The notes beneath the pieces are model-generated. The model made no database searches and was not told where the DNA came from. It saw only the letters and a list, made by a program, of their open reading frames with translations. Below, piece by piece: positions 18,299-41,722 of a stretch of 64,000 nt of DNA; the stretch's first letter is position 1; every line of letters starts with the position of its first letter. Where the stretch lies: sequence record MN850636.1; one strand, 5' to 3'. This stretch comes from Escherichia phage dune. A program made the position numbers and the translations under genes.

Positions 18299-18790
18299 TT
18301 AGTTATGTCTTGCAAACTCACCATGAAGTTCTATTCGCTTTTTAATTACAGCTTCTTTTGCTTCTTCTACCGTTTTAAATCTTCCACAAAAGTATTCTTT
18401 ATGGTAAAGCATGACTCTTGCTTTGTAAAGACCTGTTTGTTTACAAAAACTTACACCCTTCACACCAGTTTTATTATTCTTGTGTATGCCTCTATTCCTC
18501 TGATTTTGTGACTTTGTACTAAGTCTTAAGTTCTCCAACTTATTATTAGTTTTATCAAGGTCTATGTGGTCTATCTCATATCCACTTGGTATCTCACCTC
18601 CAGACATAATCCATGCAATATTATGTGCATAGTACCTCTTCTTATTTATCTGAACTTGGATATAACCCTTCTTAGACCTTGTGCCAGCAACATTGCCAGC
18701 AATAGCGGTATTGCAAAGGGTTACTTTCCAAATTAGTAAACCTGTCTCTGGTTCGTATCTTAGGTATTTTTCGAAGTAACCCTTATCCAT
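18299..18790 (-). CDS. HNH homing endonuclease with AP2-type DNA-binding region
   Basis: 163 aa; YEPETGLLIW, EIDHIDLDKTNN..N HNH motif, GVKGV..GLYKARV AP2-like block; paralogs at 31092 and 41195. Confidence 0.75.
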   Translation of the reverse strand: MDKGYFEKYLRYEPETGLLIWKVTLCNTAIAGNVAGTRSKKGYIQVQINKKRYYAHNIAWIMSGGEIPSGYEIDHIDLDKTNNKLENLRLSTKSQNQRNRGIHKNNKTGVKGVSFCKQTGLYKARVMLYHKEYFCGRFKTVEEAKEAVIKKRIELHGEFARHN

Positions 18791-18798
18791 TTTAATAC

Positions 18799-19701
18799 CT
18801 AATCCAAATTTGCTACAGTAACTTGACTGTAATGTGTTAAGCCACGGTCTTTAGCTTCGCCTAAAGAGTTTGTAGTGTAAATATGGTCGATACCATTGTC
18901 AAGAAGGTTTTCAACATCTTTAGAGAAGATACCATGTGTTACATAAAGTTCCACACGTTTTGCACCTGCTTCACGAAGATGTTTCGCTGCTTCTATGAAG
19001 GTTCGACCACCATCACAGATATCATCCAGAATCATGACGGTTTTATCTGTCAAATCAACATCATCAAGGATTCGCATACCAGTAATTTCACCAGTCTTAA
19101 GGTTACGCACTTTAGACATTGTGATGTATGGTTTATCCACCTCTTTAGCAGTCTCTGCAATCTTCTTAGCAGCACCTGCATCTGGGGCTACTAAGTAATC
19201 AATCAGTGGGTCATTTGCATAGTGGACTGCAATTTCCTTTTGAGGAATACTCTGGAAGCAATTGAAAAGGTTATCTGGAACGTAACTATGAGGGTCAACT
19301 GCACAGACTGCATCAAAACCCATTGCATTCACCTGTTGTGCAAACACTTTCAAAGCTGCTGCATCACCTTTAAACATGTGACGGTCATAACGTGCATTTG
19401 GCAAATAGTAAAAGATAGCAGTCTTCATAGCAAACTTATGCGGCACTAAGTCATCAATTGCTTCTTTAGCAAGTGCCACAGCAAACAATGTGTCCTTATC
19501 ATAACCTTTTACAATCATAATCACATTATTGATGGATGATGCTGCATAAGCAGTAAAATCAACAAACTCTGGTGAAAAGTGTCCACCAATCTCACCAGAA
19601 GGGAATTGGATGATGTTAAACTCTTCTTCATGAGTCCCTTTAGTTGGTGAATGAACTGTAACACGGATAGATGTTTTCATAGTTTTCTCTCTCTCAATCA
19701 A
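18799..19701 (-). CDS. Ribose-phosphate pyrophosphokinase-like protein (PRPP synthetase fold; Adps-like candidate)
   Basis: 300 aa; VMILDDICDGGRT matches type I PRTase / PRPP-binding loop; next to NAMPT-like gene. Confidence 0.6.
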   Translation of the reverse strand: MIEREKTMKTSIRVTVHSPTKGTHEEEFNIIQFPSGEIGGHFSPEFVDFTAYAASSINNVIMIVKGYDKDTLFAVALAKEAIDDLVPHKFAMKTAIFYYLPNARYDRHMFKGDAAALKVFAQQVNAMGFDAVCAVDPHSYVPDNLFNCFQSIPQKEIAVHYANDPLIDYLVAPDAGAAKKIAETAKEVDKPYITMSKVRNLKTGEITGMRILDDVDLTDKTVMILDDICDGGRTFIEAAKHLREAGAKRVELYVTHGIFSKDVENLLDNGIDHIYTTNSLGEAKDRGLTHYSQVTVANLD

Positions 19702-19972
19702 AAGTTACGTTTGTTACTGCCATTGCAGATTTGCATTTTGCAGGGTCTACAACGTGATAAAGTACACTACAGTTACCTGTGCTGTCTGGTACAGGTTTAA
19801 CCCATTGTTGCTTGACAGTTGGTTCTCCTAAATCTTTGTAAGAACCATCTGTAAAATTGTTTATCATCTCAAGTGCAATTGGTTCTGGAACATGACCACG
19901 TATCATGTACATTTCACAACCATTACCACCCTCACTGACCAGTGGTAAAATCTCCCACTTCTCTTTAGCCAT
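19694..19972 (-). CDS. Hypothetical protein
   Basis: 92 aa ORF. Confidence 0.4.
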   Translation of the reverse strand: MAKEKWEILPLVSEGGNGCEMYMIRGHVPEPIALEMINNFTDGSYKDLGEPTVKQQWVKPVPDSTGNCSVLYHVVDPAKCKSAMAVTNVTFD

Positions 19973-20480
19973 TGTAAGTTGCCCTATAAACTGTCTCGAA
20001 CTTCAACAGGAGAGATATTGCCAAATCTGTATAGTTGTTGTCAAGCACATCTGGCATATTATTTTTGATATATTTCTCTTGCTCTTCATAGGTCATCTTA
20101 GGAGTTCTTAGAAGGTTATCTCCTTGCTTCTGGTTATCAAGTTTAGTCTGGATAAACCAGTTTGCACAGTGATGCTCACCACCCTTTGTAACAGGTTTGT
20201 GGTGGCCTAATGTGAAGGATTGACTACCTGTGTATCTGCAAAGTTTATTGAGTACTGTAATGGTGTTCTTCACAACAAAACATTCATACAGGTTGTCTAT
20301 GGTGTAGTGTGGGTAGTAGCGGAATAGTGCTCTTTCACGAGTGCTATCACGATTCCAGAGAATCATGTTATTAGAGTTTGAAGGGTCATATTGGTGGGAG
20401 TCAATGAACTCTTGACGTTCCTCAAAGCTGAGTCTTAACACTGACATTGCAGCAGAACGTTTCAGGTTTGACAGGTACAT
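19965..20480 (-). CDS. Hypothetical protein
   Basis: 171 aa ORF. Confidence 0.4.
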   Translation of the reverse strand: MYLSNLKRSAAMSVLRLSFEERQEFIDSHQYDPSNSNNMILWNRDSTRERALFRYYPHYTIDNLYECFVVKNTITVLNKLCRYTGSQSFTLGHHKPVTKGGEHHCANWFIQTKLDNQKQGDNLLRTPKMTYEEQEKYIKNNMPDVLDNNYTDLAISLLLKFETVYRATYNG

Positions 20481-20497
20481 ATTATCTCCAAAATAAA

Positions 20498-20523
20498 AAG
20501 GGAACCTTTACAGTTCCCTTATA
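20498..20523 (-). terminator. Rho-independent terminator
   Basis: AGGGAAC-loop-GTTCCCT followed by TTTTT on minus strand. Confidence 0.5.
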
Positions 20524-20531
20524 GTATTTGT

Positions 20532-20852
20532 TTACTGAGCTACTTTCAAGATGCTTGTGAATGAAATCTCACTCTCATCCATAAACTCTTTTGCTTCTCC
20601 AGTAACTTTCACAAAGTTATCTAGGCAGATAATCTTCTTATCTTTCTTGCTGTAAGTTAGCTTAACCTTTTCAATATCTTTCTTAGAGCTTTTCTCTTCA
20701 TTAAAGAGTTTTACAGCTTCTTTGAATGGGAGGTATGAGCCATCATCATCACTAATAAAACCTGTACCACAATAGTAGAAGTTGTATTCTTTAGCCATAA
20801 ACTGGCACAGTACGAAAATCTGTAATTTGCGAGTGTTATAAACTTTGCTCAT
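20532..20852 (-). CDS. Hypothetical protein
   Basis: 106 aa ORF. Confidence 0.4.
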   Translation of the reverse strand: MSKVYNTRKLQIFVLCQFMAKEYNFYYCGTGFISDDDGSYLPFKEAVKLFNEEKSSKKDIEKVKLTYSKKDKKIICLDNFVKVTGEAKEFMDESEISFTSILKVAQ

Positions 20853-20854
20853 GA

Positions 20855-21133
20855 TTATTTAGCCTTCTTGTTACGTTTACGGTTACGAGCTTTCTTAGCT
20901 GCTCGTTTAATAGCTGCTGCACCAGTTGGTCGATGTGCTTGTTTTTTACCACCTTTACCACGTCCAACGTGGATGTAAGGCTGCTGTTCAATTTGGCTTG
21001 CAAGAACCTGTGCAATTGCTGAAGCATCCACACCAACCTGCTTTCCAGTCATAGAAATGATTGCTGCTGCTTTTGCCAGTGCCTTCAAGAAGCCAGCTTT
21101 CATACTACCTAAAATTCCCATTTTTAGTCTCAC
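20855..21133 (-). CDS. Small protein with extremely basic C-terminal tail
   Basis: C-terminus KRAAKKARNRKRNKKAK. Confidence 0.4.
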   Translation of the reverse strand: MRLKMGILGSMKAGFLKALAKAAAIISMTGKQVGVDASAIAQVLASQIEQQPYIHVGRGKGGKKQAHRPTGAAAIKRAAKKARNRKRNKKAK

Positions 21134-21136
21134 TCA

Positions 21137-21493
21137 TTAAAGTTTGATACAGAACTTATGAAGCTCTTCTTCAGTGATACCGATTGGAGTTATACCTTCT
21201 CTGATGTTTTGAATCCTGTAGAAGTCTCCAAACTTATCAGATTCATGAATGTCAAAGGTAACGTTCTTCACCATCGTTGCAAGAGCACATAATGAACGTG
21301 CACCAAATTTTTCTCTCGTATAAATCATCCAGGCATCTAACTTGTTTATGTCATAAGTCCACTTGCCAGAATAATCACTCTGCTCGCCATTGACAATCGC
21401 CTTGCCACCCATACTCTTTTCTCCAGAGGTTTTGGTTATCAGAACCACGATATGGTTTAACTGTTGGTTTAGATGAATCATACTTACCATCAA
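21137..21493 (-). CDS. Hypothetical protein; start uncertain because the 5' part overlaps nrdG
   Basis: 118 aa track ORF; an internal Met start would remove the overlap. Confidence 0.3.
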   Translation of the reverse strand: MMVSMIHLNQQLNHIVVLITKTSGEKSMGGKAIVNGEQSDYSGKWTYDINKLDAWMIYTREKFGARSLCALATMVKNVTFDIHESDKFGDFYRIQNIREGITPIGITEEELHKFCIKL

Positions 21494-21860
21494 TCACCAC
21501 GTCAACATATTTCATTACATCTAGGTGAATTTTTTCGTGTAACTGAAAACCTGTCCAGAGCCATATAGTCTTCTCTGGGTAAACAGTTTTAACACGTTTG
21601 CATATGTCTGTAACCTCTTGAATATTTCTATCATCCAGAGGTTCTCCACCAAGTATTGACAAACCACTGACAGCATTATCACCCATTAGCTGGATGATTC
21701 CGTAGAGGTTTGCATAAGTAAATACCTTACCAGCATTAAACTTCCAAGACTCCCTGTTAAAGCAGCCTTCACAGTGATGCTTACAACCAGCTACGAAGAG
21801 GCTTACACGAACCCCTTCACCATTAGCTGTGTCAAATGGTCTAATCTCCATGTAATTCAT
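21375..21860 (-). CDS. nrdG: Anaerobic ribonucleotide reductase activating protein (radical SAM)
   Basis: 161 aa; cysteine cluster CKHHCEGC; adjacent to nrdD. Confidence 0.75.
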   Translation of the reverse strand: MNYMEIRPFDTANGEGVRVSLFVAGCKHHCEGCFNRESWKFNAGKVFTYANLYGIIQLMGDNAVSGLSILGGEPLDDRNIQEVTDICKRVKTVYPEKTIWLWTGFQLHEKIHLDVMKYVDVVIDGKYDSSKPTVKPYRGSDNQNLWRKEYGWQGDCQWRAE

Positions 21861-21919
21861 CTAGTTACCTCACCAATACATATAAAAGTTCTGTAAACCT
21901 TTTCTTCGAATTGTTTTGC

Positions 21920-22315
21920 TCATCCAAACACTACCTGACAGGGAACCTGTTTAGTAATAAATTCTTCACAGTGCTCTTTAATGAAGTTTTGTAATGGCAC
22001 ACAATCTTGTGCACAAGTCATTAGCATAATGTACTCTGGATTCATAATATTTTCAAGACTGTAGAAGACAACATCATTAGATAGCTCATGACCGTCTTCT
22101 TCAGACCAAGTTCCAGTGACTACAGCTAATTTGTCAAGTAATTCATTAGGCAATGCTACACCATCTTCTACAGAATCACTTAGAACATTGTCGCCAATAT
22201 ACAATGTGAAGGTCGTATGGAATGTTGAGTACCTTACGTGATTCTTTTCACAAGAGCCACACTCTGAGGCATAATCTTTAATCCACTCTAACTGTTTTTG
22301 GTTCAACTTAATCAT
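21920..22315 (-). CDS. Hypothetical Cys-rich protein
   Basis: 131 aa ORF. Confidence 0.4.
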   Translation of the reverse strand: MIKLNQKQLEWIKDYASECGSCEKNHVRYSTFHTTFTLYIGDNVLSDSVEDGVALPNELLDKLAVVTGTWSEEDGHELSNDVVFYSLENIMNPEYIMLMTCAQDCVPLQNFIKEHCEEFITKQVPCQVVFG

Positions 22316-22512
22316 AATTTTACCTTAGTTGGTAATGCACTGAATGCTATAGCTAACCCTAAAAATGGTTTGAAGCATGACCATAAATCCATCTGACCAT
22401 TATATGATAAATTCCATTGTGGGTCTGAAAAACCCCATACCATAGCACTAACCCCAAAGAAGAAGATTAGCGTTCGGAGCATGTATATCATTGTTTTTGA
22501 TATCTTAAACAT
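22312..22512 (-). CDS. Small membrane protein
   Basis: 66 aa hydrophobic ORF. Confidence 0.35.
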   Translation of the reverse strand: MFKISKTMIYMLRTLIFFFGVSAMVWGFSDPQWNLSYNGQMDLWSCFKPFLGLAIAFSALPTKVKL

Positions 22513-22666
22513 TTTAACTTACCTCTCAACTCACAATAAGAGAGTCCTAAAAAGAACCCTAGTAAGACAGAACCTATGAACAGGCCAATGATGCTCTCTG
22601 CCATATCTAACATCCAATAAAAAAGGTGATGTAAGCCTATCAAGACTCACACCACCTTGTCAAGTT

Positions 22667-24811
22667 TTACATAGAAACCCTGTCACGAATCTCGGCAATT
22701 TTTGCATCATTCATTCGGGATTCACCTTTAATCTTAGTCCACCCAAGATACCCACACACTCTGTTAATCACAGAGATGTCATGTGAATGGCAAGCCTCAC
22801 ATTCTTCAACATCAGCCTTTGGTCTGTTGCCACAATGTTCGCAGATTGCTAAGTCAAAGTTAAGTCCTTGATAAAAACCCTTCAACATCCCTCTTGTAAT
22901 ACAACTTTTAAGTGCTGGTAAGTTTTCTGGGTTAGCCACCCTTACATACTGGATTCTGCCACCTCTACAGATATGGAAGAATGGTTCTTCTAAGTCCTGC
23001 TTCTCAAATGGTGAGATGTCTGCTGCAACATTCATATGGAAGCTATTTGTAAAGTATTCCTTATCAGAAACACCTTTGATAACGCCAAACATATCTCTGA
23101 ACTGTTTTAGCTGAGTTCCACAAAGTGATTCTGCTGGAGTGCCATAGACTGCATATAAGAAGCCATCTTCATTTTTAAACTCTTCAGTTTTCATGTTAAT
23201 GTATGCCAGAACATCGTATGCAAAACTACAGCTTCCAAGTTCATGAAGTCGTTTACCTTCAGCAAGAACAGATAGCTCATCAAGTGCAGTAACCCCAAAA
23301 GAAGCTGTGAAGGACTTCACGATATCCCAGCCAACCTTATCAGTAGGTTTCTTATTCCCTTTGTACAGACCGCCTTGTGTGAATGCGAGAGGGTTAGAAC
23401 TTGCTGGCATATTAGCAATCATTTCGTAGCGTTTCTTGTGGAAACTACGAATCATCTCTAGGTACTTATCAAGCTCTTTCCAGAAATCTAAACCATTCTC
23501 TTTAGAATACTGGTAAAGCATTGGTAAGTTCAAAGACACAGCACCAATGTTAGCACGACCTACATAGAACTCTTCCCCATTCTCGTTAAGATATGGTGAT
23601 AAGAAGGCTCTACAACCCATCGGGGAAATTACCTTACCAGAACGCTCAAAAGCCTCTGCTACAGCACCATGACCAGATACACTTAAGAAATCTGGATACA
23701 TTGCTTTAGAGCAACACTCAATAGCTTTACTGTACAGGTGTCCTTGACAGATATTCTCATCGTGTCTCTTCTGGTCATAAATATAAACCAGTTTAGGGAA
23801 TACAACAGGTTTCTTGCTCTTACCTTGTCCATTCATACGAACATCTAGGAGAGTACTTGCAATCATGTATTGTAGTCGGTTATCTTCATTGGACATATCT
23901 GAGTCAAGTAACCCGAATGTCAAAGTTGTAAATGCAAAATCCCCACGACTACAAGGTACAGTGTTTAGTTTCATTTCAAGTGACTGGAAACCTTGAGTCA
24001 GTTCAATCTGTAGCTGCTCCATGACATAATTGTGGTAATGTTCTTTAGGAATACCATAAGACGCTGCTTTCTCAGCATGATAGCGTAGAGACTTCTTAGC
24101 ATACGGCACAAGTACCTTATCAATCTCTGCTAAAGTAAAGCCACCAAATTGCTGTGCAGTTGCTGAAAGAACTACATCACCAATAACCTGTAAGGCCGAC
24201 AGCACAGACTTGGGTTCACAATATTCAATGCCAGACATTTCAAAGCCGCCTTTCAGGACTTTACCAATGTCAAACAGGCAACAGTTGATACCACCAAAAA
24301 TTAGGTCTCTTAAATCATGGATATAGGTAAACCCTTTTTCAATGGCTTCCAGTTCCTCTGGTGTTAAATGATACTGTTTAAAGATTTCTTTAGTCAGATA
24401 ACCACGGATAATCGAACCTTTTGTAGAAATTAAACTGCTGTCAAAGTTAGCATTCTCTCTGTCACCTAAGAAAAGTGTATCTTTAGTTTTCTGGTAGAGT
24501 TCATCCCAATTTTGAGCAACCTCTTTACGGTAATTTCTATATGTTGAGTAAGACTCATAAATCTCGTGATTGACTTCTGCCAAAGCACCCTCAACAATAC
24601 TGTGAATATCATTTACTGAAATGAGTAAATTATTCTGCTTAGTGGACTTTACCAGAATCCTCATAAATGCTGACTCAAGAGCTTGGGTAACATCTGGTGG
24701 GAGTTCTTTATACCCAACCCTATTAGCTGACTTTGTGACTGCTGCTAAAACTTTTTTGATATCAGGTTCTTCGAGTGAGCCATTCTTTTTAATAATCTGT
24801 ACTTTGTTCAT
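22667..24811 (-). CDS. nrdD: Anaerobic ribonucleoside-triphosphate reductase (class III)
   Basis: 714 aa; C-terminal glycyl-radical motif RVCGYLG; Cys cluster CEHCG..CEAC; RBS upstream. Confidence 0.9.
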   Translation of the reverse strand: MNKVQIIKKNGSLEEPDIKKVLAAVTKSANRVGYKELPPDVTQALESAFMRILVKSTKQNNLLISVNDIHSIVEGALAEVNHEIYESYSTYRNYRKEVAQNWDELYQKTKDTLFLGDRENANFDSSLISTKGSIIRGYLTKEIFKQYHLTPEELEAIEKGFTYIHDLRDLIFGGINCCLFDIGKVLKGGFEMSGIEYCEPKSVLSALQVIGDVVLSATAQQFGGFTLAEIDKVLVPYAKKSLRYHAEKAASYGIPKEHYHNYVMEQLQIELTQGFQSLEMKLNTVPCSRGDFAFTTLTFGLLDSDMSNEDNRLQYMIASTLLDVRMNGQGKSKKPVVFPKLVYIYDQKRHDENICQGHLYSKAIECCSKAMYPDFLSVSGHGAVAEAFERSGKVISPMGCRAFLSPYLNENGEEFYVGRANIGAVSLNLPMLYQYSKENGLDFWKELDKYLEMIRSFHKKRYEMIANMPASSNPLAFTQGGLYKGNKKPTDKVGWDIVKSFTASFGVTALDELSVLAEGKRLHELGSCSFAYDVLAYINMKTEEFKNEDGFLYAVYGTPAESLCGTQLKQFRDMFGVIKGVSDKEYFTNSFHMNVAADISPFEKQDLEEPFFHICRGGRIQYVRVANPENLPALKSCITRGMLKGFYQGLNFDLAICEHCGNRPKADVEECEACHSHDISVINRVCGYLGWTKIKGESRMNDAKIAEIRDRVSM

Positions 24812-24829
24812 TATTGCCCCTTTACATGC

Positions 24830-24855
24830 TAAAAAGGTCTCCGAAGAGACCCTTT
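24830..24855 (-). terminator. Hairpin GGTCTC-CGAA-GAGACC with flanking T-run, upstream of nrdD
   Basis: Read from sequence; may act as attenuator or terminator. Confidence 0.4.
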
Positions 24856-24859
24856 CATT

Positions 24860-30594: not shown

Positions 30595-31095
30595 TCAAGC
30601 ACAATTTGCTTTCATGACCTTATGGATTCTTTTTTCAGCATCTTCATAAGTTTCTTTAGTAATAAACTTAATTGCTGCAATATTGGCATTGTAGAAGAGT
30701 CTGAGCTTCGAGTCAATCCTTTTTGTCATTACATCGAACTTATGTTGAAGGTTTGCTTCACCATAAACTAGACCACCTTTTGTGTAGTAGGTTTGGATAA
30801 TGTAAAAATCAAAAGATTCCTTTCCAAAGCTCTCAATATCTTTTTTAATATACTCAGAAGAAGTCTCGTAAGTCATCCAATCACTTTCCTTAGTAACTAC
30901 CTTCTTCCGAGTCTTCCCAGCAACTTTTCTTTTGGTCACACTGTTAAGCTGTTTCTTACCCAAATAGTACTGTCCAGTCTTTTTGCAGTACACTAGGTAG
31001 ACAAAACCAAAGTGCTTTGCTGGGTCAACTTCACCACATAGTGAAACCCAATGTCCATATTCAGGACAATTGCCAAAACCTTTTATTTTTCTCAT
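30595..31095 (-). CDS. Putative GIY-YIG family endonuclease
   Basis: 166 aa; FVYLVYCKKTGQYYLGKK resembles the GIY..YIG module. Confidence 0.5.
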   Translation of the reverse strand: MRKIKGFGNCPEYGHWVSLCGEVDPAKHFGFVYLVYCKKTGQYYLGKKQLNSVTKRKVAGKTRKKVVTKESDWMTYETSSEYIKKDIESFGKESFDFYIIQTYYTKGGLVYGEANLQHKFDVMTKRIDSKLRLFYNANIAAIKFITKETYEDAEKRIHKVMKANCA

Positions 31096-31616
31096 TCATA
31101 AGCTTCTCCGTGATTTGTAAACTCTTTATGGAGTTCTTCTCTTTTCTTTTTGACAACTAATTCAGCCTCAGCGATAGAGTCAAATAAACCTAGATGATAG
31201 CAAACTTTATTATGCTTGACTTGTGCAGCCCATCTACCTCTTTGCTTATGGTAATATACACCCTTCACACCAGATTTATTATCTCTTCTTTTGGCTGCAT
31301 TACAGTTATTATCTGACCTGCTACACTCTCTCAAATTGTCGAACCAGTTGTCGTGCCTGATACCATTCTTATGGTCAACAAATTTTGGTAGGTATCCTTT
31401 CATATACAAGAATGCCAGTCTGTGTGCTGCATATCTTTTCCCGAAGAGTTTTATGTAGATATAACCACTATGATGTTTAAGACCCGCTACTGAGCCAGCT
31501 TTGGCCTTACCTTTTCTATTAACTAACCAAGTAAAGACCCCTGTTTCGGGGTCATAGTGCAGGTATTCTTTAAGAGTTTGTTGGGTTAACATTTGGTGTC
31601 CATCCATACTTATCAA
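31092..31616 (-). CDS. HNH homing endonuclease with AP2-type domain (paralog 2)
   Basis: 174 aa; YDPETGVFTW, VDHKNG..DN..N, GVKGVYYH..GRWAAQV. Confidence 0.7.
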   Translation of the reverse strand: MISMDGHQMLTQQTLKEYLHYDPETGVFTWLVNRKGKAKAGSVAGLKHHSGYIYIKLFGKRYAAHRLAFLYMKGYLPKFVDHKNGIRHDNWFDNLRECSRSDNNCNAAKRRDNKSGVKGVYYHKQRGRWAAQVKHNKVCYHLGLFDSIAEAELVVKKKREELHKEFTNHGEAYE

Positions 31617-32616
31617 AAGTGAAATCGTCTTTCTTATTTCTTTCCTGATAAGCTAAGAAAAAGTGTTGCTGCATTAACTCTAAAGGTGTTCTGGTAATTG
31701 TTTGACCATCCCACGAGACATAAGTGTATGACTCTTTCTTAGCATAAAGCTCATAAATTGCATCAAGACACTCTTTGTAAGTGGTTTTACCTTCAAGGGC
31801 TTTCATTATAGTAACCTTACCAACACCCTTTAAACCGAAATAATTATCCGCATTATCACCAGCCACGGCTTGATAGCAAAGAAATTTAAAACCTACCCCA
31901 ACTGTCTTCTTAGCTTTGGGTGTCGATTTTATTGGGCAATCCCAAATTTCACCAACGTTGTTATCAGCAATGAAAATCAAAGGTGACTTTTCATAGGTCA
32001 TATCAATGCAGTAAGTCCCTTCAGCTTGGCGAAGGTCTTTATCAATACTCATCAAGGCAGCCTTTTTACCCATCTTTTCAGCTTTAGCAATAACGATAGA
32101 GTCAGCTTCGAATCCATCAAGAATTAGCTTGAACTCTGGCCTTGACAGAAGATACTCGCGACAAGCAACTAAGTGTGTTGGTGTGACAGCATCTTTACGG
32201 TTACCTTGATATTGGTGCTCAAGACCTTTAATGTCTTTATGTTTATGCACACCTTTCTCTGTTAAATAACCTACCCAAGTTCTTTCTTTACCAACAACCT
32301 TAAGCCATTCCTGAAGCACCTGTTGAGTAGCCATGATAGCTTCTTTTTCACTCTTAGCTTCTTTCCAAGTCTGTCTTTCCCATTCATCTTCATCAAATGT
32401 CAGGCCAAGCTCTTCCACAAGGATTCTCTGGTCTGCTAACCATCTTGCAGCATCTTTCGCATTATCAAACGAATCAGATTCTTCTGCTGTGAGTTTATTG
32501 ACATATTTATATTTTGCTTTCTCAACTACACAAGCACCTTTATAGGCAATACTGTCAGAGTCAATAAAAACATGTGTAACTGAATCGGGAAGTTTTGTTA
32601 ATGTGTACTTCTCCAT
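31570..32616 (-). CDS. 5'-3' exonuclease / flap endonuclease (FEN, RNase H-like)
   Basis: 348 aa; acidic N-terminal cluster FIDSDSIAYKG, GFEADS, and GDNADNYFGLKGVGKVT helix-hairpin-helix-like block. Confidence 0.6.
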   Translation of the reverse strand: MEKYTLTKLPDSVTHVFIDSDSIAYKGACVVEKAKYKYVNKLTAEESDSFDNAKDAARWLADQRILVEELGLTFDEDEWERQTWKEAKSEKEAIMATQQVLQEWLKVVGKERTWVGYLTEKGVHKHKDIKGLEHQYQGNRKDAVTPTHLVACREYLLSRPEFKLILDGFEADSIVIAKAEKMGKKAALMSIDKDLRQAEGTYCIDMTYEKSPLIFIADNNVGEIWDCPIKSTPKAKKTVGVGFKFLCYQAVAGDNADNYFGLKGVGKVTIMKALEGKTTYKECLDAIYELYAKKESYTYVSWDGQTITRTPLELMQQHFFLAYQERNKKDDFTFDKYGWTPNVNPTNS

Positions 32617-33536: not shown

Positions 33537-33573
33537 TATTTAAACCTCTATCTCAATTTATGAAGAGTACCAA

Positions 33574-33602: not shown

Positions 33603-33608
33603 TACTAA

Positions 33609-34048: not shown

Positions 34049-36002
34049 TTAATACAGGTGGAATCGTTGAGCTTTGACGTTGTTCTTCAGTATAGACTTC
34101 ACCAGTCTCACGGTCAAACACTTCATCCTCATAATGAGGCAAAGAGTCATCATAATGGTCTTCAGCTTCACCAATACCAAACTGTTGACGAATATTTTCT
34201 GCTGCGCCATCAATGTCAACACCACATCCAGAAGCTTTAATAAGACGTCCTGTATCTGGATTATACCAAGTATGGCCAGCAATACCTGTTGACTTACCAT
34301 GACGACGACACTTAGTTAACTTGATTTTTGTCAAGTTTTTCTTAACTGGGTCTGGGTCAACCTTGTTACGCATTAACAGAATGTTATTCATAGAAATCTG
34401 AAAATACGCACCAGAACCTTTGATATCCTCTTCAGAGATATCTCCACCTTCAGAGTTAGCTTTCTGACCACCTGCACTCTTACGAACGTGACATACGTTT
34501 ACCTGCGCATACTGGTAGCGTTTGCAACGACGCAATAGCTCAGACAAAACTTCTTCTTCATCCGTATCAGAACGTGACAGGGCTAACGTGATAGGGTCAA
34601 GAATGATAATCTTACAGTCTAAACTGTTAACAAGATAGTCAACAAACTCTAGCAGGTTATCTTGGTCAATTGCCCCTTGATGGTCAACGATATGGATACG
34701 ACGGCCTTTAGATAGTTCTGCGTGTGCTCCTTTTAATTCATCCCAATCCCGTTCATCATAAGGAATCTCAGAAATCTGCTTGCTCAGGTGGATTGCACAG
34801 AGCATCTCCATCAACTCTTCATAGGTATCTTCTACAGGAATTACACCGATATTATAATCAGTTTCTTTCCAAGCTGAGTAAATCATCTCACGAGTGTAAG
34901 CTGACTTACCTACTGAAGATGGTGCTGCAATAGTTGTAATCTCACCTAGACCATAACCACCATAAGTCAGCCTGTTCAAATCTCCGAAAGATTCTGGGAA
35001 AGGAATCAATGGAATCTGACCACGATTCTTCATTGCCTCAAAACCATCTGCAAAGTTCTTGATACCAGCAGGACAGTAACGAGGTGCATTGTAGATACGC
35101 TGCTTAAATCCTTCCAGAACTGTATCTTTCTCTTTATAGAACTTTGTCCACCACTCGTTAAGGTCTTTTACGCCTTCTGGATACTGGAATAAGCGAACCT
35201 TCTCAATAGGTAGGATACCAGCAGCCTCTTTGGTAGCTTTAGCACCTGCTTCATCGTTATCAAAGCACAAGTAAATCTCATCAAATGATGTGATGTACTG
35301 ATAGTTGTCTTTGATAGACTTAATGTTTGCACCTGATGGAACAGATACGTGACAGTAATTCTTACGACGAGACTTGTCCTTAATCGCAAGAGAAGTCATA
35401 TAGATTGCTGTCGCACATTCCATCTCACCTTCCCAGATGAATAGACGGTTACCACCTTCTGGAGCAATCCATGAACCGAACATTGCCAGTTCACCTTTAA
35501 TGTCTCCAACACCACCAGAAAAGTCTTTTAGCTTACCACGTAGGTGCTCTTTTGGATGGTCTTCTGGGTAACGGTGACGAACACGGTAACCAACATGTTC
35601 TAGCTTACCATCTTCATTACGTTTGTAAGTTGGATAGAAATGTGCGTCAATTTCACCATCACTGTCAATGTCAACCTTGATACCTAAGCGTTCAAGGACT
35701 TTTGCAGGAATCTTCCTGTCTTTCAAGTCCATTGCTTCTAGGTTTTCTTTTACATCGTCTAAATCCATTCCACGGAAAGTACGGTTTTTATTGTCTGAAC
35801 CAGTAGAATAAGTGCTCACGATTTGTCCTTTATCAAAATCCCACTCTGGGAAACCTTTGTTACAACTAAAGCAAGTCATCGAATAAGAATCATCGTCATG
35901 ATGATAGATTGAACCAGCATCTGATGAACCACAACGTGGACATGCGCAATGACCAACAAACTGACCAGCCTCTTTCAATTTACGACCTTTAGACATTAGC
36001 AC
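34011..36002 (-). CDS. Bifunctional DNA primase-helicase (T7 gp4-type)
   Basis: 663 aa; N-terminal zinc ribbon CPRCG..CFSCNKG; TOPRIM region; Walker A GKSAYTREM; DnaB-like C-terminal half. Confidence 0.85.
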   Translation of the reverse strand: MLMSKGRKLKEAGQFVGHCACPRCGSSDAGSIYHHDDDSYSMTCFSCNKGFPEWDFDKGQIVSTYSTGSDNKNRTFRGMDLDDVKENLEAMDLKDRKIPAKVLERLGIKVDIDSDGEIDAHFYPTYKRNEDGKLEHVGYRVRHRYPEDHPKEHLRGKLKDFSGGVGDIKGELAMFGSWIAPEGGNRLFIWEGEMECATAIYMTSLAIKDKSRRKNYCHVSVPSGANIKSIKDNYQYITSFDEIYLCFDNDEAGAKATKEAAGILPIEKVRLFQYPEGVKDLNEWWTKFYKEKDTVLEGFKQRIYNAPRYCPAGIKNFADGFEAMKNRGQIPLIPFPESFGDLNRLTYGGYGLGEITTIAAPSSVGKSAYTREMIYSAWKETDYNIGVIPVEDTYEELMEMLCAIHLSKQISEIPYDERDWDELKGAHAELSKGRRIHIVDHQGAIDQDNLLEFVDYLVNSLDCKIIILDPITLALSRSDTDEEEVLSELLRRCKRYQYAQVNVCHVRKSAGGQKANSEGGDISEEDIKGSGAYFQISMNNILLMRNKVDPDPVKKNLTKIKLTKCRRHGKSTGIAGHTWYNPDTGRLIKASGCGVDIDGAAENIRQQFGIGEAEDHYDDSLPHYEDEVFDRETGEVYTEEQRQSSTIPPVLSEDADDCPFETE

Positions 36003-36189
36003 CTCTTCGTTGTAGTTCTGCCTTCAATCCATTTTCAATCTTGTCCAGTTCATGAATTTCATCTGCAATCTCTTTCCTTCGTGATTCAACTCTCTTAAGA
36101 CGTTCAATCATTACCTCATTGGAAAGAGATGAGAGTTCCACTAAACGGTGGTCAATAACTTTAAAATTGTCTTTTACTCTCATCTTCAT
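35989..36189 (-). CDS. Small coiled-coil protein
   Basis: 66 aa ORF. Confidence 0.35.
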   Translation of the reverse strand: MKMRVKDNFKVIDHRLVELSSLSNEVMIERLKRVESRRKEIADEIHELDKIENGLKAELQRRGANV

Positions 36190-36197
36190 TCTCTCTT

Positions 36198-36941
36198 TTA
36201 AACTTTAATGATGGCTCTTAGCTTGTTCTCAAGGTCTGTAAGAGTACCATTATTATGAATAATGTCACGCTCATATTTGGTGGATAGCCCATTTTCTGAA
36301 ACGTGTGATGAAACTTTGTCCACATTGTCTCTTTTTACTTCAATAGTCTGGTGTGCAAATCTACTCAGCCATTCAGCTTCAGAGTCAAATCTTAAATCAC
36401 TGATTAAAACAAAACCATATTGATTTCTAAGTGAGCACATTTCATGGAATCTAACCATTCTTTTTTCAAGGTCTTTAGACCAGAACTTGTCGCCCATTAC
36501 TTTACGGACAACTTCAGTACCCCAAATCTGTTGAATTTGTCTTGATGAGAGTTTATACTTTTTGCTAAACCCCAGACGTGTCAATAGAGTCGGTTTAGCA
36601 ACCTTCTTAAGCTCCATGATTAATCGTCCGGTTAATTCTGACATAAGCTTGAAGTCCATATGGTAACGTTCATCTCTGAAGGTGAACTCCATAGCTTCCG
36701 TAACTTTAAACATCAGTTCATGATATGATAAGTCAAAAACCTGTGGAGTCTCTTTAGTTTCACCGTACAGGTCATTCCAAGTCAAGTCAAATATCTTTGA
36801 TGCAGATAGTTTAAGGTTGTCTGCAAAGGCCATTACTTCAACATTGTAGCCATACTCATCCTCTAAGATGTTCTTCACAATAGAACATGAGGTGTCTTTT
36901 CCAGAACGTGCCTTTCCAGTAAATGCGATAATATTACTCAT
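36198..36941 (-). CDS. Deoxynucleoside monophosphate kinase (T4 gp1-like)
   Basis: 247 aa; P-loop GKARSGKDT near N-terminus. Confidence 0.6.
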   Translation of the reverse strand: MSNIIAFTGKARSGKDTSCSIVKNILEDEYGYNVEVMAFADNLKLSASKIFDLTWNDLYGETKETPQVFDLSYHELMFKVTEAMEFTFRDERYHMDFKLMSELTGRLIMELKKVAKPTLLTRLGFSKKYKLSSRQIQQIWGTEVVRKVMGDKFWSKDLEKRMVRFHEMCSLRNQYGFVLISDLRFDSEAEWLSRFAHQTIEVKRDNVDKVSSHVSENGLSTKYERDIIHNNGTLTDLENKLRAIIKV

Positions 36942-37002
36942 TTTATCTCCATTAATTACTAAAAAGCCCCCAACTAAGGAGGCTTGTAAGATTTATAAAG
37001 AC

Positions 37003-37803
37003 TTAGTGTAGTTGCTCAGCAGACTCTTTTTCAGCCATAGCTGAGAGTTGCTTCACAAAATCATCACCGAAGTTAATGCGTAGTTTCTCTTCAATGATGG
37101 AAGCACCAATGTTCACCAAAACATCATTGATTGCTTGCATACTGACGCCACCAGTCATCTCTTCAATAAACTCAATACTCACACCCATCATCTGTGAAAG
37201 TTGGATTAGTGCAACGATATTCATCATCGTAGAGATAGCTGGAATCATCAGTGCAACTTTCACCTGAAGTGGTTCTATATCAGCTACAGAGTCATTTTCA
37301 ACAGCTTCTTCCAAAGAATCTTTGGTTTGCTGGATAATTTCTTGGATTCGTGGGTTTAATTCTTCTACGCCCCAATCAAGTTTTTCATATCGTGAAAGTT
37401 TCTCTTCCATGCGCTTCTCAAGAACAGCCATAACAGCACTCGTTGATGAGATAAGCGTATCAATAATGAAATCAGTGTCCTTAGTCAGCAACAGCTCCTT
37501 ATCTTCGTCTGACATCCTGATATAGTCATTTCTCTGCATCTCATAAAAAATGAACTCTGCAAGAGCATCAACACCAACCGCAATAGATGCCAGAGCAAGT
37601 GTTTTGTCGCAAAGCATCATGTTAACCTGTTCTGCAAAAGCATCGTTATCAGACTTGTCTTTAGGCAGATTGTAGCTTGCAGGCATAAACTGTTCTGTAT
37701 AGTTGTTACCACGAAGAATCATAGCCATGCTTTCTACGGCATTGATTAAAAATGCTTCGTCAATACCTTTTTCTTCAAGCATCTTTTCTACATCGATATT
37801 CAT
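37003..37803 (-). CDS. Hypothetical protein
   Basis: 266 aa ORF. Confidence 0.45.
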   Translation of the reverse strand: MNIDVEKMLEEKGIDEAFLINAVESMAMILRGNNYTEQFMPASYNLPKDKSDNDAFAEQVNMMLCDKTLALASIAVGVDALAEFIFYEMQRNDYIRMSDEDKELLLTKDTDFIIDTLISSTSAVMAVLEKRMEEKLSRYEKLDWGVEELNPRIQEIIQQTKDSLEEAVENDSVADIEPLQVKVALMIPAISTMMNIVALIQLSQMMGVSIEFIEEMTGGVSMQAINDVLVNIGASIIEEKLRINFGDDFVKQLSAMAEKESAEQLH

Positions 37804-37804
37804 A

Positions 37805-38227
37805 TTATTTCTCTCTCAGTTGGTTAAGTTTCTTTCTAGAACATTTTAAGTTTTCAGATGAAGAAAAGTCAAGTGTCTTTTCAGAACGTGGATAATAGTG
37901 CCTATCCCAAGAAGTTTCAACATCGTTAATCAGTGACGCTAGATTACACAGGTCTGTACCACTTTGCAACCTCTTTTTAAGAGAATCTAGTAAAGCAACT
38001 GTGTCTTTAGCTTTACGTCTCGCTGTAGCAACATCTTTCATATGCTCAAATACAGAGCATTTTAAGTCATCTTCATAGTTTTCAGACAACTCTATTTCAT
38101 GTTGTATATCAACCATTCTCCTGTGATGGTGAGCATATTCCCGTTGAGCAGCAATGTCAAGTTCTTCCAACTTCTGCAAAGCTCTAACAAAGTCAGCTAT
38201 GTCTGGGTGAACAAACATTTTCTGCAT
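37805..38227 (-). CDS. Hypothetical protein
   Basis: 140 aa ORF; first gene of the leftward transcription unit. Confidence 0.45.
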   Translation of the reverse strand: MQKMFVHPDIADFVRALQKLEELDIAAQREYAHHHRRMVDIQHEIELSENYEDDLKCSVFEHMKDVATARRKAKDTVALLDSLKKRLQSGTDLCNLASLINDVETSWDRHYYPRSEKTLDFSSSENLKCSRKKLNQLREK

Positions 38228-38484
38228 GTAAGCCTCTTTTAAGTAACTATTAAGTTTTAATCTTTTATCTTAACGTATTCTATACGTTATACTTTAAAGC
38301 TTTTTAAAAGCTATTAAATAATCTTTTAAGAGTTTTAAAGTATCTGTATAGTTAAACTGTTAAGTAACCTTTTAAGTAAAAACCCACTTCGCAAAGATTA
38401 ACACCTTGTCAAGTGTATTGTCAACTTGCTTTTTATAATTTTTTGCAGTAATGTATGAGGTTAATGATTTTAGAGGGAGTAAAA
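38228..38484. promoter_or_regulatory. Divergent AT-rich regulatory region between leftward and rightward gene blocks
   Basis: Genes diverge here; repeated TTTTAAG / CTTTTAAGAG motifs, TTGTCA and TATAAT hexamers present but with non-canonical spacing. Confidence 0.45.
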
Positions 38485-41184
38485 ATGGAAAACGTAGATT
38501 TTAAGAACTTACATTTAGTTGGTGATACAGAAACTGATGGTTTACTCCTTGAGTTCACTAAAGTTCACGTAATGGCTTTTGCAGACTATAAATCTGACGA
38601 TGAAGAGCCACCTGTATGGGTCTTCACAGATGAGCCTATCCTCGGTCACAAGTACACTAAGTACATTAAGGGTGGTTTACGTGAAGGTGTTGAGTTTGCG
38701 TTAAAGGCAAAACGACTTTGTATCCATAATGGTCTCGGTTATGACTGGTGGGTTTTCAATCACATTGCACCGGATTTATGGAACTTTGATAATCCAAAAT
38801 GTAAGCCGTGGAGTAATTTCTTTCAGGACTCTCTTATCCAGTCTCGTGTTCAGTGGATGGATAGACCAACTCCAAAGGGTTATAAAGGTGCTCATGGTTT
38901 GGCTGCATGGGGTGCTCGTGTTGGTGTTCGTAAGCCAGAGATTGAGCATTGGGGTGTGTGGAATGCAGAAATCTTCACTCGTGTTGTAGAAGATATTCGT
39001 ATTAACGCCAAAACTAAACGGGCACTTGATAATGAGTATCTCAAGCTTAAGAAGTGTGGCATAGACACTTATGAAACCTACATGCGAGCTAAAGAAACAT
39101 CTTTCTGGATGAGTCAACAAGCTATCAATGGTTGGAAAGCTGATAAAGAGCTTATGGAGTTCCATGTAAAGGAACTTGACAAGTTGACTAATGAGCTTGC
39201 TTCAGAGGTTGAACCACACCTTCCTCCAACTATTAAGACCAAAGGTAAAGTCACTGGAGAAGAGTTTGCAAAAGCTTGGAATGAGTATGTTGAAACATTT
39301 GGTCATGCAGATGGACTGAAGAGAATTACCAAGTACCCTAAAACAAAGTATCGTCAGCAGGTACGTAACGGTGAGATGCAGACATACGAAATCAAGCCAT
39401 TTGGTAAGCCAACTACAAAGATTTTTAACATTGAAAAGAGAAATTGCTATACACCAACCAACTCTGTAACTGGTGAGGAGTACAAGGAAGGCTTTGTAGC
39501 AATGAAGGATGCTCGTGCAATTTGCAATGAGTTGAACGCAAAGATTGGTAAGAAATGCAAAGACTGGAAGCCAGTAAAAACAGTCAAAACTGTGAAGTAC
39601 TATAACAGCCACGTTGTTAACCACTTTGAGCTTGAGTCGAGTCGCTACACAGGTTTGATTGATGCACCATATACACCAATTGAGTTTGAAGTTTCCCGTA
39701 TGACTCAGGTAGCAGTTGTTAAAGACTACTTGAAATCAGTTGGTTGGATTCCAGATGACTGGAACTACAAGAAAGACTCAGATGGTCGCCCTGTCAAAGT
39801 TTGTCGTTTCAAAGACAATAAAAAGATGATTACAAAACATCCTAAGTGGCAGGAAATGGTTGAGCGATGTGGTTTGAGCTATGTTGAACATGAAGGTGTA
39901 CAGTACATCGAGCATAACTGGTCTGTGAAGAAATACACAGATTTGCTTGAACCTTGCTTAATCCGTACTTCACCAAAACTTACTGAATCATCTTATGATA
40001 CGATTGAAGGTGAGCTTGGACAGAAGATTGCTAAGTACTATACTTTGATGCACCGACGCAGAACTATTGAGAACTCAAAGGATGATGAAAAAGGTTGGTT
40101 GAACCAGATTCGTCCTGATGGTCGCCTTAGTGCTGGTGCAATGGTATTTGGCACTTCAACTGGACGTATGACACAATATGGTATTGTAAACGTACCGTCT
40201 GGTGCTGCTGTCTATGGGGAACCAATGAGGGCAGTGTGGATTTGTGAAGAAGGTACTAATGTTGTCTCTGTAGACATGAACTCAGCCCAGCTAGTTCTCC
40301 TTTGTAACTTTATGGGTGACAAAGACTTCACCAAAGCGGTAACGCAAGGTAAAGAAGAGATTGAGTTTATTCGTCAAGAAGATGGACGCTATTACTGCAA
40401 ACATTTTGATGAGTACCTAAACCCAGAGATTGATAAGTACCTTCGCTATGACTCTGAGAATGACCTGTACGTTGTCTATTCAGGGACTGATGCACATACA
40501 CTGAATAGTATTTACTTTAGCTTGAATGATGAGCAGGATATCTTGACTTGTCGAGCTACTCAGGATGAGAATCTTCTTCATGAGATTAGCAAAGGTCGTA
40601 AGAAAGCTAAAAATGGTATCTATGCACTACTGTTCGGTGCAGGTGATGAAAAGTTTGCTAAAACTATTAAGGCAGCCACTACTCAGGAAGGTGCATTAAC
40701 TAAACAGACTTACTTTGTGCGTTTGCCAAAGATTAAGAAGCTGCTAGATGACTTGGAAGCTGACTACAAAGCAACTAAAAAGGCACTTGAAGAGGTGTTT
40801 GGTAAGACTGCTGCAATCTCTAAAGGGGGTTTTGTAAAGGTTGCTGGAGCTTGGTTGTGGTGTAAATCTCCACATAAGTTGTTGAATTATTTGCTCATGG
40901 GTTCGGAAAGTCAGATTCAGAACGAGGCAATTAACCTTGCTTGCCGTCGTATGATTGACGAAGGTTTGATGAAGTTGAACGGTCGCAAACCAGCTATAGG
41001 TGCTCGTTTATTGTGCTCCTATCACGACGAGACGAGTTGGGAATGCCCAGAAAGTATGACGGCAGAGGTGAAGGCTGTCACTGATTGGTATTACGGGCAA
41101 GCCTCTAAGAACTTAGGACTAAAGAGTGAAACACTGGTAACTGGTACTGGTAAGGTTGGTAAATCGTGGTTGGAAGTGCATTAA
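38485..41184 (+). CDS. DNA polymerase, family A, with 3'-5' exonuclease domain (start moved to ATG at 38485)
   Basis: GAGGGAG RBS before MENVDF; Exo I motif VGDTETDGL; palm-region blocks. Confidence 0.85.
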   Translation: MENVDFKNLHLVGDTETDGLLLEFTKVHVMAFADYKSDDEEPPVWVFTDEPILGHKYTKYIKGGLREGVEFALKAKRLCIHNGLGYDWWVFNHIAPDLWNFDNPKCKPWSNFFQDSLIQSRVQWMDRPTPKGYKGAHGLAAWGARVGVRKPEIEHWGVWNAEIFTRVVEDIRINAKTKRALDNEYLKLKKCGIDTYETYMRAKETSFWMSQQAINGWKADKELMEFHVKELDKLTNELASEVEPHLPPTIKTKGKVTGEEFAKAWNEYVETFGHADGLKRITKYPKTKYRQQVRNGEMQTYEIKPFGKPTTKIFNIEKRNCYTPTNSVTGEEYKEGFVAMKDARAICNELNAKIGKKCKDWKPVKTVKTVKYYNSHVVNHFELESSRYTGLIDAPYTPIEFEVSRMTQVAVVKDYLKSVGWIPDDWNYKKDSDGRPVKVCRFKDNKKMITKHPKWQEMVERCGLSYVEHEGVQYIEHNWSVKKYTDLLEPCLIRTSPKLTESSYDTIEGELGQKIAKYYTLMHRRRTIENSKDDEKGWLNQIRPDGRLSAGAMVFGTSTGRMTQYGIVNVPSGAAVYGEPMRAVWICEEGTNVVSVDMNSAQLVLLCNFMGDKDFTKAVTQGKEEIEFIRQEDGRYYCKHFDEYLNPEIDKYLRYDSENDLYVVYSGTDAHTLNSIYFSLNDEQDILTCRATQDENLLHEISKGRKKAKNGIYALLFGAGDEKFAKTIKAATTQEGALTKQTYFVRLPKIKKLLDDLEADYKATKKALEEVFGKTAAISKGGFVKVAGAWLWCKSPHKLLNYLLMGSESQIQNEAINLACRRMIDEGLMKLNGRKPAIGARLLCSYHDETSWECPESMTAEVKAVTDWYYGQASKNLGLKSETLVTGTGKVGKSWLEVH

Positions 41185-41194
41185 TGGTGACAAA

Positions 41195-41722
41195 ATGATT
41201 ACACAAGAACGTTTAAAGGAGCTACTACACTATGACCCCGAAACAGGGGTCTTTACTTGGCTTCGTAGAGAGGGTGACTCAAGGGCTGTTAAAGTCTTTA
41301 ATAGTAAGTACGCAGGACAGGTAGCGGGGAGCATCCAGATTGACTCAACTGGTCATAAGCAGATTACTATCTATTTTGACAAGAAAGCACATAAAGCACA
41401 TAGACTCGCATGGCTGTACGTGTATGGTAGGCTACCGAAAGGTGTTATTGACCATATTAATGGGGACTCCCTTGATAACAGGGTTGTAAACTTAAGAGAA
41501 GCAGATGACTGCCAAAGTGCTTGGAATAAAAGCAAACTATCCACCAATAAATCAGGCTATAAGGGTGTAAGCCTGAAGAAGAAGTCTGGTAGGTGGGTTG
41601 CGCAAATAAGCTATAAAGGTAAAAAGATGTCATTAGGCTACTATGACACCCCTGAAGAAGCCCACAAAGCTTACTGTGAAGCTGCTATTAAACTCCACGG
41701 AGAGTTTGCAAAACTAAGTTGA
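41195..41722 (+). CDS. HNH homing endonuclease with AP2-type domain (paralog 3; start moved to 41195)
   Basis: YDPETGVFTW, VIDHINGDSLDN..N, GYKGVS..GRWVAQI; track ORF start overlaps polymerase 3' end. Confidence 0.7.
   Translation: MITQERLKELLHYDPETGVFTWLRREGDSRAVKVFNSKYAGQVAGSIQIDSTGHKQITIYFDKKAHKAHRLAWLYVYGRLPKGVIDHINGDSLDNRVVNLREADDCQSAWNKSKLSTNKSGYKGVSLKKKSGRWVAQISYKGKKMSLGYYDTPEEAHKAYCEAAIKLHGEFAKLS

Follow-up and report, generated by a model that had tools for sequence, protein, structure and literature searches.

We analyzed a stretch of 64,000 nucleotides (nt) from Escherichia phage dune (sequence record MN850636.1), called the window hereafter, in which three genes for HNH endonucleases with AP2-like C-termini and one gene for a GIY-YIG protein sit at three gene junctions. 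HNH_A (18299-18790, minus strand, 163 amino acids (aa)) has as its upstream neighbour prs, encoding ribose-phosphate pyrophosphokinase (18799-19680, minus strand; Pfam Pribosyltran/Pribosyl_synth and annotation), and as its downstream neighbour nadV, encoding nicotinamide phosphoribosyltransferase (16503-18284, minus strand; Pfam NAPRTase 1.3e-34 and NAMPT_N, and the annotation of phage Felix O1). An earlier reading of the same DNA (the original prediction) had one HNH gene split an NAD+ pair, and NadV and Prs do flank HNH_A. HNH_B (31092-31592, minus strand, 166 aa) lies between a gene for a 5'-3' exonuclease (31570-32616, minus strand; named from the annotation in relatives and a weak Pfam 5_3_exonuc match) and the GIY-YIG gene (30595-31095, minus strand, 166 aa). 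HNH_C (41195-41722, plus strand, 175 aa) follows the DNA polymerase gene, pol (38455-41184, plus strand, 909 aa), which is annotated as such, has no Rfam match and is intron-less in the window. The pol stop codon occupies 41182-41184 and the ATG of HNH_C comes 10 nt on, as expected of a gene said to start at the 3' end of pol. Each HNH gene is an open reading frame (ORF) of its own in an intergenic slot, outside any intron or intein, and is in this sense free-standing.

The neighbourhood belongs to a well-sampled group of phages. A 24.5-kb span of the window is matched by 279 phage records, 211 of which cover at least 80% of it, the best at 94-96% identity, and nearly all of these matches are to Felixounavirus, the Felix O1-like myoviruses of Escherichia, Salmonella and Shigella. 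Judged by these matches, the source of the window is a Felixounavirus, i.e. a Felix O1-like myovirus. Felix O1 itself (NC_005282) has all four nuclease genes in the same order and at the same three junctions. More precisely, prs and nadV enclose its ORF128 ('HNH endonuclease'); its ORF106 ('HNH endonuclease') and ORF107, which bears the label 'NAD synthetase' there, are found between the exonuclease gene and a small ORF plus a MazG-like gene; and its ORF95 ('HNH endonuclease') is directly 3' of the DNA polymerase gene. Whichard et al. 2010 (PMC3185647) reported that HNH endonuclease sequences occur in 'six copies' in this phage. Endonuclease elements of this kind have been annotated in Felix O1-like phages before, and their presence is already known.

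The three HNH proteins are paralogs, in line with the original prediction: HNH_A and HNH_B share 39.5% identity (E 7e-35), HNH_A and HNH_C 36.3% (8e-31), and HNH_B and HNH_C 42.8% (3e-36). The N- and C-terminal blocks that it singled out are indeed common to them, with 43 invariant columns in a three-way alignment, among them a Y-[DE]-P-E-T-G..W block at the N-terminus, a D-H dyad, an N-L-R motif and a C-terminal K-G-V ... E-A ... L-H-x-E-F block. Pfam HNH_3 is found in all three (HNH_A 2.7e-19, HNH_B 8.8e-13 and HNH_C 1.1e-14; 69, 48.1 and 54.2 bits for a cutoff of 24.8), and all three fall in phrog_99, 'HNH endonuclease', with E between 1e-69 and 1e-75. The AP2-like nature of the C-termini was also borne out, since Pfam AP2 scores 52.9 bits in HNH_C and 34.0 bits in HNH_B, both above the cutoff of 33.3. 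The AP2 block further matches solved structures of plant AP2/ERF domains in the PDB, namely WRI1 (1e-6 and 1.9e-7), TEM1, ERF096 and AtERF1. NCBIfam gave no match for any of the four nuclease proteins, and tblastn of these proteins against the 64-kb window revealed no further paralog.

The HNH core could be compared with that of the nickase I-HmuI (PDB 1U3E), which aligns with it at E 3.8e-4 when a profile of the three sequences is used, and which a PDB search with HNH_C alone did not retrieve. The catalytic His-Asn core is in place: the D74/H75 dyad of I-HmuI and its structural N87 have equivalents in all three proteins. These equivalents are invariant in 41/41 distinct alleles from relatives. 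In I-HmuI, Asn96, nine residues after N87 on the helix, is what we take to be a metal ligand. The corresponding position holds Asn in HNH_A, in HNH_B and in every allele family except that of HNH_C.

Junction A is binary among relatives. HNH_A is present in 61 of 253 records, and the others show a clean deficit of ~470 bp, the distance between anchors being ~800 bp with the gene and ~331 bp without it. HNH_A stands in place of a 35-nt spacer that contains a terminator; in the empty state, an intrinsic terminator hairpin (GGGGGCTTCAAAGCCCC-TTTT) separates the stop codon of prs from the start of nadV. We located this hairpin in two empty relatives (L003 2407-2427 and L002 ~2150-2190), and a terminator is also annotated. 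Since the empty allele has its own terminator hairpin, which is absent from carrier alleles, it is not a deletion product. The insertion removes the terminator, and the transcription architecture of prs-nadV must therefore differ between the two allele types. The difference extends into the downstream neighbour. Across the first ~150 bp of nadV, carriers and non-carriers diverge by 13-25%, whereas carriers differ among themselves by 1.5-7% and divergence falls to ~5% further out; no such excess is seen on the prs side. This tract at the 5' end of nadV (18151-18284, minus strand), defined by carrier/non-carrier divergence, is a candidate target or co-conversion tract. Identity to Moogle/phiSUSP1 is 93% in this tract and 62-87% in the genes around it, and the identity step relative to Moogle covers HNH_A and the first ~100 bp of nadV. 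Synonymous divergence (dS) from Moogle/phiSUSP1 is 0.30-0.39 for HNH_A and 0.94-1.15 for prs and nadV. The ratio of nonsynonymous to synonymous divergence (dN/dS) of HNH_A is 0.11-0.15.

At junction B, the ORF proposed for HNH_B stands, and its start has to be moved from the TTG at 31616 to the ATG at 31592, the likely start. The gene begins within the last 23 nt of the exonuclease gene and its TGA stop overlaps the ATG of the GIY-YIG gene (ATGA). Of the neighbours named originally, the exonuclease is directly upstream, but the genes for ribonucleotide reductase are not adjacent: nrdA lies ~1.7 kb further on, and a small ORF and the MazG-like gene come directly downstream of the GIY-YIG gene. 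At least 80% of the junction-B query is covered by 78 of 243 records. Among 28 IMG/VR and 4 GenBank genomes, 7 have the allele of the window, 8 have divergent alleles of two types, with 57-61% nt identity, and 17 have no gene, the empty junction holding 8 nt in place of ~500 nt. The exonuclease is 348 aa long when HNH_B is present, and only its residues 1-344 align when it is absent. The ~600-bp 3' tract of the exonuclease gene diverges by 11-29% between carriers of the window-type allele and non-carriers, against 2-8% within each group, and returns to baseline beyond 32180. The resulting HNH_B-linked haplotype block covers the 3' part of the exonuclease gene (31593-32180, minus strand) and also takes in the first ~180 bp of the GIY-YIG gene (30920-31091). 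In phage fjerdesal, HNH_B and the exonuclease gene match the window at 100% identity, but HNH_A and HNH_C are both missing. The dN/dS of HNH_B is 0.12, and no recent transfer of this gene between genera was seen. Shortened copies occur at this junction: in a single IMG/VR genome (L009 11066-11524), a junction-B allele lacks part of its N-terminus, and the GIY-YIG ORF is shortened in phage EC6 (L033 11712-11990). They may reflect decay or sequencing errors.

At junction C, at least four allele families and an empty state are found at one exact site; at least 80% of the query is covered in 44 of 257 records, which fall in several length classes that all begin right after the pol stop. The 3' end of pol is hypervariable in step with HNH_C (40900-41184, plus strand; a candidate target or co-conversion tract): identity to relatives without HNH_C is 81-90% in this tract and 95-98% upstream of it. 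In the last 40 codons, the proportion of synonymous sites that differ (pS) is 0.60-0.67 relative to those same relatives, and 0.07-0.19 among them. The opposite trend is observed with phiSUSP1/SUSP2, where identity is 81-95% along pol, rises to 97-98% from exactly 40900 and stays at 95-99% through HNH_C. The dS of HNH_C to these phages is 0.12, against 0.72 for pol and 2.2 for the exonuclease gene. The dN/dS of HNH_C is 0.12-0.15. Its stop codon overlaps a TTGACA hexamer that is part of an annotated promoter in AYO145A; a scan for sigma-70 promoters after HNH_C called none, the spacer from TTGACA to TATACT being 22 nt, and we do not use the promoter label.

Other variation is found near this slot. 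An extra insert of ~200 bp occurs in five relatives (L024, L027, L035, L031 and L025), ~55-65 bp downstream of the junction-C insertion point, at the equivalent of ~41770-41780 in the window. The pol gene of some relatives has a group I intron (RF00028, 62.3 bits) at the equivalent of ~40626, ~560 bp upstream of the HNH_C slot. This intron is 313 bp long and lacks an ORF in phages Mushroom (L004 24188-24492) and warpig; in two IMG/VR genomes (L009 and L020) it measures ~805 bp and contains an Endo VII-like HNH ORF. From the intron site (~40626) to the stop codon, pol is a hot spot of divergence.

Taken together, the junctions show the pattern expected of mobile genes. In the 28 IMG/VR genomes, HNH_A is found in 6, HNH_B in 12 and HNH_C in 16, and many combinations of them occur; the sites assort independently of one another, and when genomes are compared by their distal flanks, the nearest neighbours of carriers are often non-carriers. 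When carrier labels were permuted, the association of the tracts with the genes was matched in 0-2 of 5000 permutations (0/5000 for nadV and for the exonuclease gene), against 257-1012 of 5000 for control segments. HNH_A and HNH_C, with their tracts, are far closer to the copies of other genera than their flanks are (dS of 0.12-0.39 against 0.7-2.2), which shows that each of the two, along with its tract, was recently transferred between genera. Two relatives (L029 and L043) are recombinant genomes whose crossovers lie within 15-150 nt of a junction. All HNH alleles are under purifying selection (dN/dS 0.05-0.15). The site-exact presence and absence, the linked tracts and these transfers lend good support to the original proposal of homing for the three HNH genes. 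The view that the genes mark recombination breakpoints is likewise upheld by the divergent tracts linked to their presence and by the jumps of identity at their borders. The variability expected at the junctions holds in part: the three HNH junctions are polymorphic among close relatives, while the GIY-YIG gene is invariant. We consider it likely, with a probability of roughly 0.85, that this phage, a Felix O1-like myovirus, carries its three HNH-AP2 ORFs as free-standing homing endonuclease genes, and that the GIY-YIG gene stands outside this mobile set.

How such genes would spread can be outlined as follows. Each endonuclease gene would hold a fixed slot beside a conserved gene (prs/nadV, exonuclease/GIY-YIG, pol/next operon). 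During a mixed infection with a relative that lacks the gene, the N-terminal region and the AP2 domain would recognise the DNA, and the HNH domain would nick or cut the empty allele near this slot. Repair by recombination with the carrier genome would then copy the endonuclease gene together with a stretch of the neighbouring gene, a co-conversion that would be the basis of marker exclusion. The carrier allele would be protected through its own sequence differences in the co-converted stretch. Both the cleavage activity and this immunity of the carrier allele are what we infer from the genomes. Candidate cleavage sites would lie in the first ~150 bp of nadV, in the last ~600 bp of the exonuclease gene and/or the first ~180 bp of the GIY-YIG gene, and in the last ~285 bp of pol.

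Several observations weigh against this interpretation. The AP2 match of HNH_A reaches 20.8 bits, below the cutoff of 33.3, although the protein is homologous to the two others across the same block. In HNH_C and in its whole allele family, the position of N96 is Ser ('DCQSAWN', residues ~106-113), and the Pfam HNH_3 match of HNH_C ends early, at profile position 39 of 46. To judge from the alignment, the Ser is a deviation and not a loss of the His-Asn core; the allele family has a conserved Asn three residues past it. The chemistry of HNH_C may be altered. Its family is probably still active, since purifying selection acts on it and it has been transferred between genera recently. The permutation overstates independence because the sampled genomes are related, and the candidate cleavage sites come solely from patterns of divergence. 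Finally, some alleles are old. The wV8-type allele of junction B has a dS of 1.8 between genera and the HNH_C-type allele of L025 has a dS of 1.4, compared with 1.1 for pol; both have diverged along with their flanks, a pattern that argues for long residence and not for recent movement.

These old alleles are what one would expect if the HNH genes were ancestral residents that have been deleted repeatedly, the patchiness and the tracts being old linked polymorphism instead of traces of homing. The genomes of L029 and L043, which can be read as apparent losses or recombinants, and the truncated junction-B allele of L009 could be accounted for in the same way. We nevertheless find this history very improbable. 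Between genera, HNH_A and HNH_C are 3-18 times younger (in dS) than the genes that flank them, the steps in identity coincide with the gene plus its tract, and the terminator of the empty junction A speaks against a simple deletion there. Nor would strong purifying selection on a dispensable gene be easy to account for unless the gene had an activity that is selfish or beneficial. Such a benefit is at the heart of another explanation, in which the HNH-AP2 proteins are kept mainly for a role useful to the phage, such as keeping out competing phages, nicking DNA in replication or recombination, or regulating transcription through AP2, and mobility is a side effect. The low dN/dS over a long divergence would fit this, AP2 domains act as DNA-binding regulators elsewhere, e.g. 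in the CasPR proteins (bioRxiv 10.64898/2026.02.23.707548), and a conserved GC palindrome in HNH_B and HNH_C (see below) could be an operator. However, each gene is lacking in 43-78% of the 28-genome sample and none is fixed, the GenBank isolates that lack them were propagated in culture, and the placement and the tracts fit the classical behaviour of homing endonuclease genes. A useful role and homing are not mutually exclusive, but we regard the former as the main reason for the maintenance of these genes to be quite unlikely.

The GIY-YIG gene, which the original prediction had grouped with the HNH genes as a homing element, does not behave like them. Its product matches PF19835 (SegE_GIY-YIG, 4.7e-27, 95.1 bits for a cutoff of 25) over residues 22-139 of 166. 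It could be thought of as an active homing endonuclease gene that has become fixed in Ounavirinae or whose targets are phages not belonging to this subfamily, given this SegE-type domain, a weaker match to the PHROG homing endonuclease family phrog_7363 (2.6e-15) and its position next to HNH_B. However, the gene is found in 31 of 31 aligned relatives, other genera included, its divergence is that of its flanks and its dN/dS is 0.03-0.04; at an aa identity of at least 60%, tblastn retrieves it in ~297 phage records, including Ounavirinae of Erwinia and Hafnia. Homologs at 30-36% identity are conserved across several hundred cyanomyovirus records (tblastn). Pfam detects no second or DNA-binding domain in the protein, in which 27 residues follow the nuclease domain, and among PHROGs the best match, a full-length one, is to a family of ~148-aa proteins. 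A PDB sequence search with the protein gave matches at chance level only. Active homing of this gene is unlikely on this evidence, and we regard it, from its distribution and divergence, as a vertically inherited core gene of the subfamily, outside the mobile set. The ORF is widely mislabelled 'NAD synthetase' in GenBank and in PHROGs (phrog_447).

The alleles at junctions B and C have conserved ends. The last 78 nt of the junction-C families (41645-41722 in the window) are shared, at 94-100% identity among three families and 81-88% for the fourth, whereas the 62 nt just 5' of this shared end are only 40-56% identical in an ungapped comparison. The junction-B families share their first 66 nt (31527-31592) at 85-98%, and the window-type and wV8-type alleles also share their last 60 nt at 90-95%. 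Shared ends around an unalignable centre are seen in relatives L001, L004, L007, L008, L015 and L019, among others. It looks as if the central part, the one presumed to determine specificity, had been replaced by recombination through the conserved ends.

One of these ends contains a stem-loop within the coding sequence. Positions 31527-31559 are identical to positions 41228-41260, i.e. over 33 nt, and the DNA of HNH_B and HNH_C is otherwise unalignable. The identical segment contains a GC stem-loop, GACCCC-N6-GGGGTC, at 41234-41251 (plus strand) in HNH_C, where it stands out by the conservation of its synonymous sites, and at 31536-31553 (minus strand) in HNH_B, where it was found through the same match (33/33 nt, E 3.7e-15). 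With a T-rich tail, it is found at ORF nt 40-57 in every allele of junctions B and C. The window has 2 copies for 0.02 expected, and across the 63 loci examined, the stem-loop is confined to the HNH genes of these two junctions; HNH_A keeps the peptide motif and lacks the hairpin. The stem is invariant in 27 distinct alleles, including at 4 synonymous sites, whereas all 20 of the flanking third-codon positions vary, ten codons being compared on either side of the stem, and the loop varies even in the amino acids it encodes. A scan of IMG/VR with a 20-base pattern for the hairpin returned contigs of ~51-94 kb only, of which most had been recognised as Ounavirinae relatives before, and we consider the hairpin lineage-specific for this reason. 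The motif scores as terminator-like, and z-scores of RNA folding around it are unremarkable (-1.4 to -1.6). As the stem never varies, covariation cannot be shown and the case is one of synonymous-site conservation alone.

These features can be joined in a tentative model, which we hold to be possible and somewhat doubtful: the genes of junctions B and C would form a cassette system in which highly divergent families are swapped at a fixed landing site via short conserved ends, and the stem-loop would be a functional nucleic-acid element. The allele families of such a system would probably differ in specificity. The stem-loop could act within the gene as an attenuator or terminator and so hold down the expression of the endonuclease. 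It could also be an operator with G/C runs or a docking site for AP2, serving autoregulation or competition between alleles. A third hypothesis is that it serves as a handle for recombination.

The rest of the window holds little else of this kind. An Rfam scan of all 64 kb gave nothing at the gathering threshold, so that the tRNA cluster of Felix O1-like phages must lie outside the window; with no group I intron or other Rfam match in the window, we also rejected a reading of the HNH genes as intron-encoded. Pfam identified no other endonuclease family among ten neighbouring ORFs and confirmed NadV, Prs, the MazG-like protein and the exonuclease. The ORF at 20532-20852, whose counterpart is an 'endonuclease' in the annotation of phage fjerdesal, was discarded as a candidate, its only Pfam match being DUF7390. 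In phage Mushroom, nrdD is split (L004 4955-7094) and there are two further homing endonuclease genes at that place, one NUMOD-type and one HNH; the nrdD of the window (22667-24811) is intact. The records of Campylobacter phages A132/A126 and Staphylococcus phage SA1 (MG065664, MG065668 and GU169904) contain Felixounavirus sequence at 90-95% identity, and are probably contaminated or chimeric assemblies.

These phages offer a clean and well-sampled natural case of free-standing endonuclease genes that shape mosaicism near genes of replication and nucleotide metabolism, in a group used for Salmonella typing and biocontrol. One practical consequence is that the linked parts of pol, of the exonuclease gene and of nadV are unreliable phylogenetic markers. 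The analysis also corrects the 'NAD synthetase' label that has propagated on a conserved GIY-YIG gene. What may be new here is limited to the hairpin conserved within the ORFs and to the ends that the alleles share. For the HNH-AP2 class, which is biochemically uncharacterised, we can name pairs of carrier and non-carrier phages, such as the phage of the window or Felix O1 paired with fjerdesal (empty at junctions A and C) or AYO145A (empty at all three), and narrow candidate target windows; to our knowledge, no member of this class has a mapped cleavage site.

The closest known system is Felix O1 itself, where HNH_A, HNH_B and the GIY-YIG gene are 92-96% identical in nucleotides to the copies of the window. 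The two phages differ at the pol junction, where Felix O1 has an allele of another family (52-70% nt identity, 139 bits against 395 for the self match) and a 3' end of pol that is also unlike that of the window. More broadly, HNH-AP2 proteins are a recognised class of phage homing endonucleases, known from T4-like and Xp10-like phages (PMC2993671, PMC2248197). Members in Xp10, OP1 and Xop411 (PMC2248197), in RB49, RB43, RB16 and JSE (PMC2993671) and in ICP1 (IPA-HNH, PMC10448857) likewise have an N-terminal HNH and a C-terminal AP2 domain. There too, several paralogs occur per genome, beside genes of replication or nucleotide metabolism, and they are gained and lost between relatives and sit at boundaries of genetic exchange, a position reported for endonuclease genes before (PMC10448857). 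Unlike the proteins of the window, the IPA-HNH of ICP1 has no canonical Pfam HNH_3 match, and the hairpin, seen at the nucleotide level, was found only in contigs of Ounavirinae. I-HmuI, an HNH nickase of Bacillus phage SPO1, shares D74-H75 and N87 with all three proteins and N96 with HNH_A and HNH_B, HNH_C having Ser there. It differs in being intron-encoded and in having NUMOD/helix-turn-helix modules for DNA binding and no AP2 domain.

The mode of mobility proposed here is best compared with that of the Seg (GIY-YIG) and Mob (HNH) endonucleases of phage T4, such as SegB (PMC2330249) and MobE (PMC2790892), whose genes are also intergenic, poor in promoters and placed beside conserved genes. 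These enzymes cut the endonuclease-less allele near the insertion site, which leads to asymmetric co-conversion of the flanks and to marker exclusion (PMC2330249, PMC2790892). The purifying selection, tracts, transfers and crossovers described above are the signatures expected of free-standing homing endonucleases of this type. The sequence families and the DNA-binding domains are different. As for the GIY-YIG gene, the seg genes of T4 are sporadic whereas the gene of the window is fixed, and the C-terminal DNA-binding domain that follows the nuclease domain in Seg proteins was not detected in its product.

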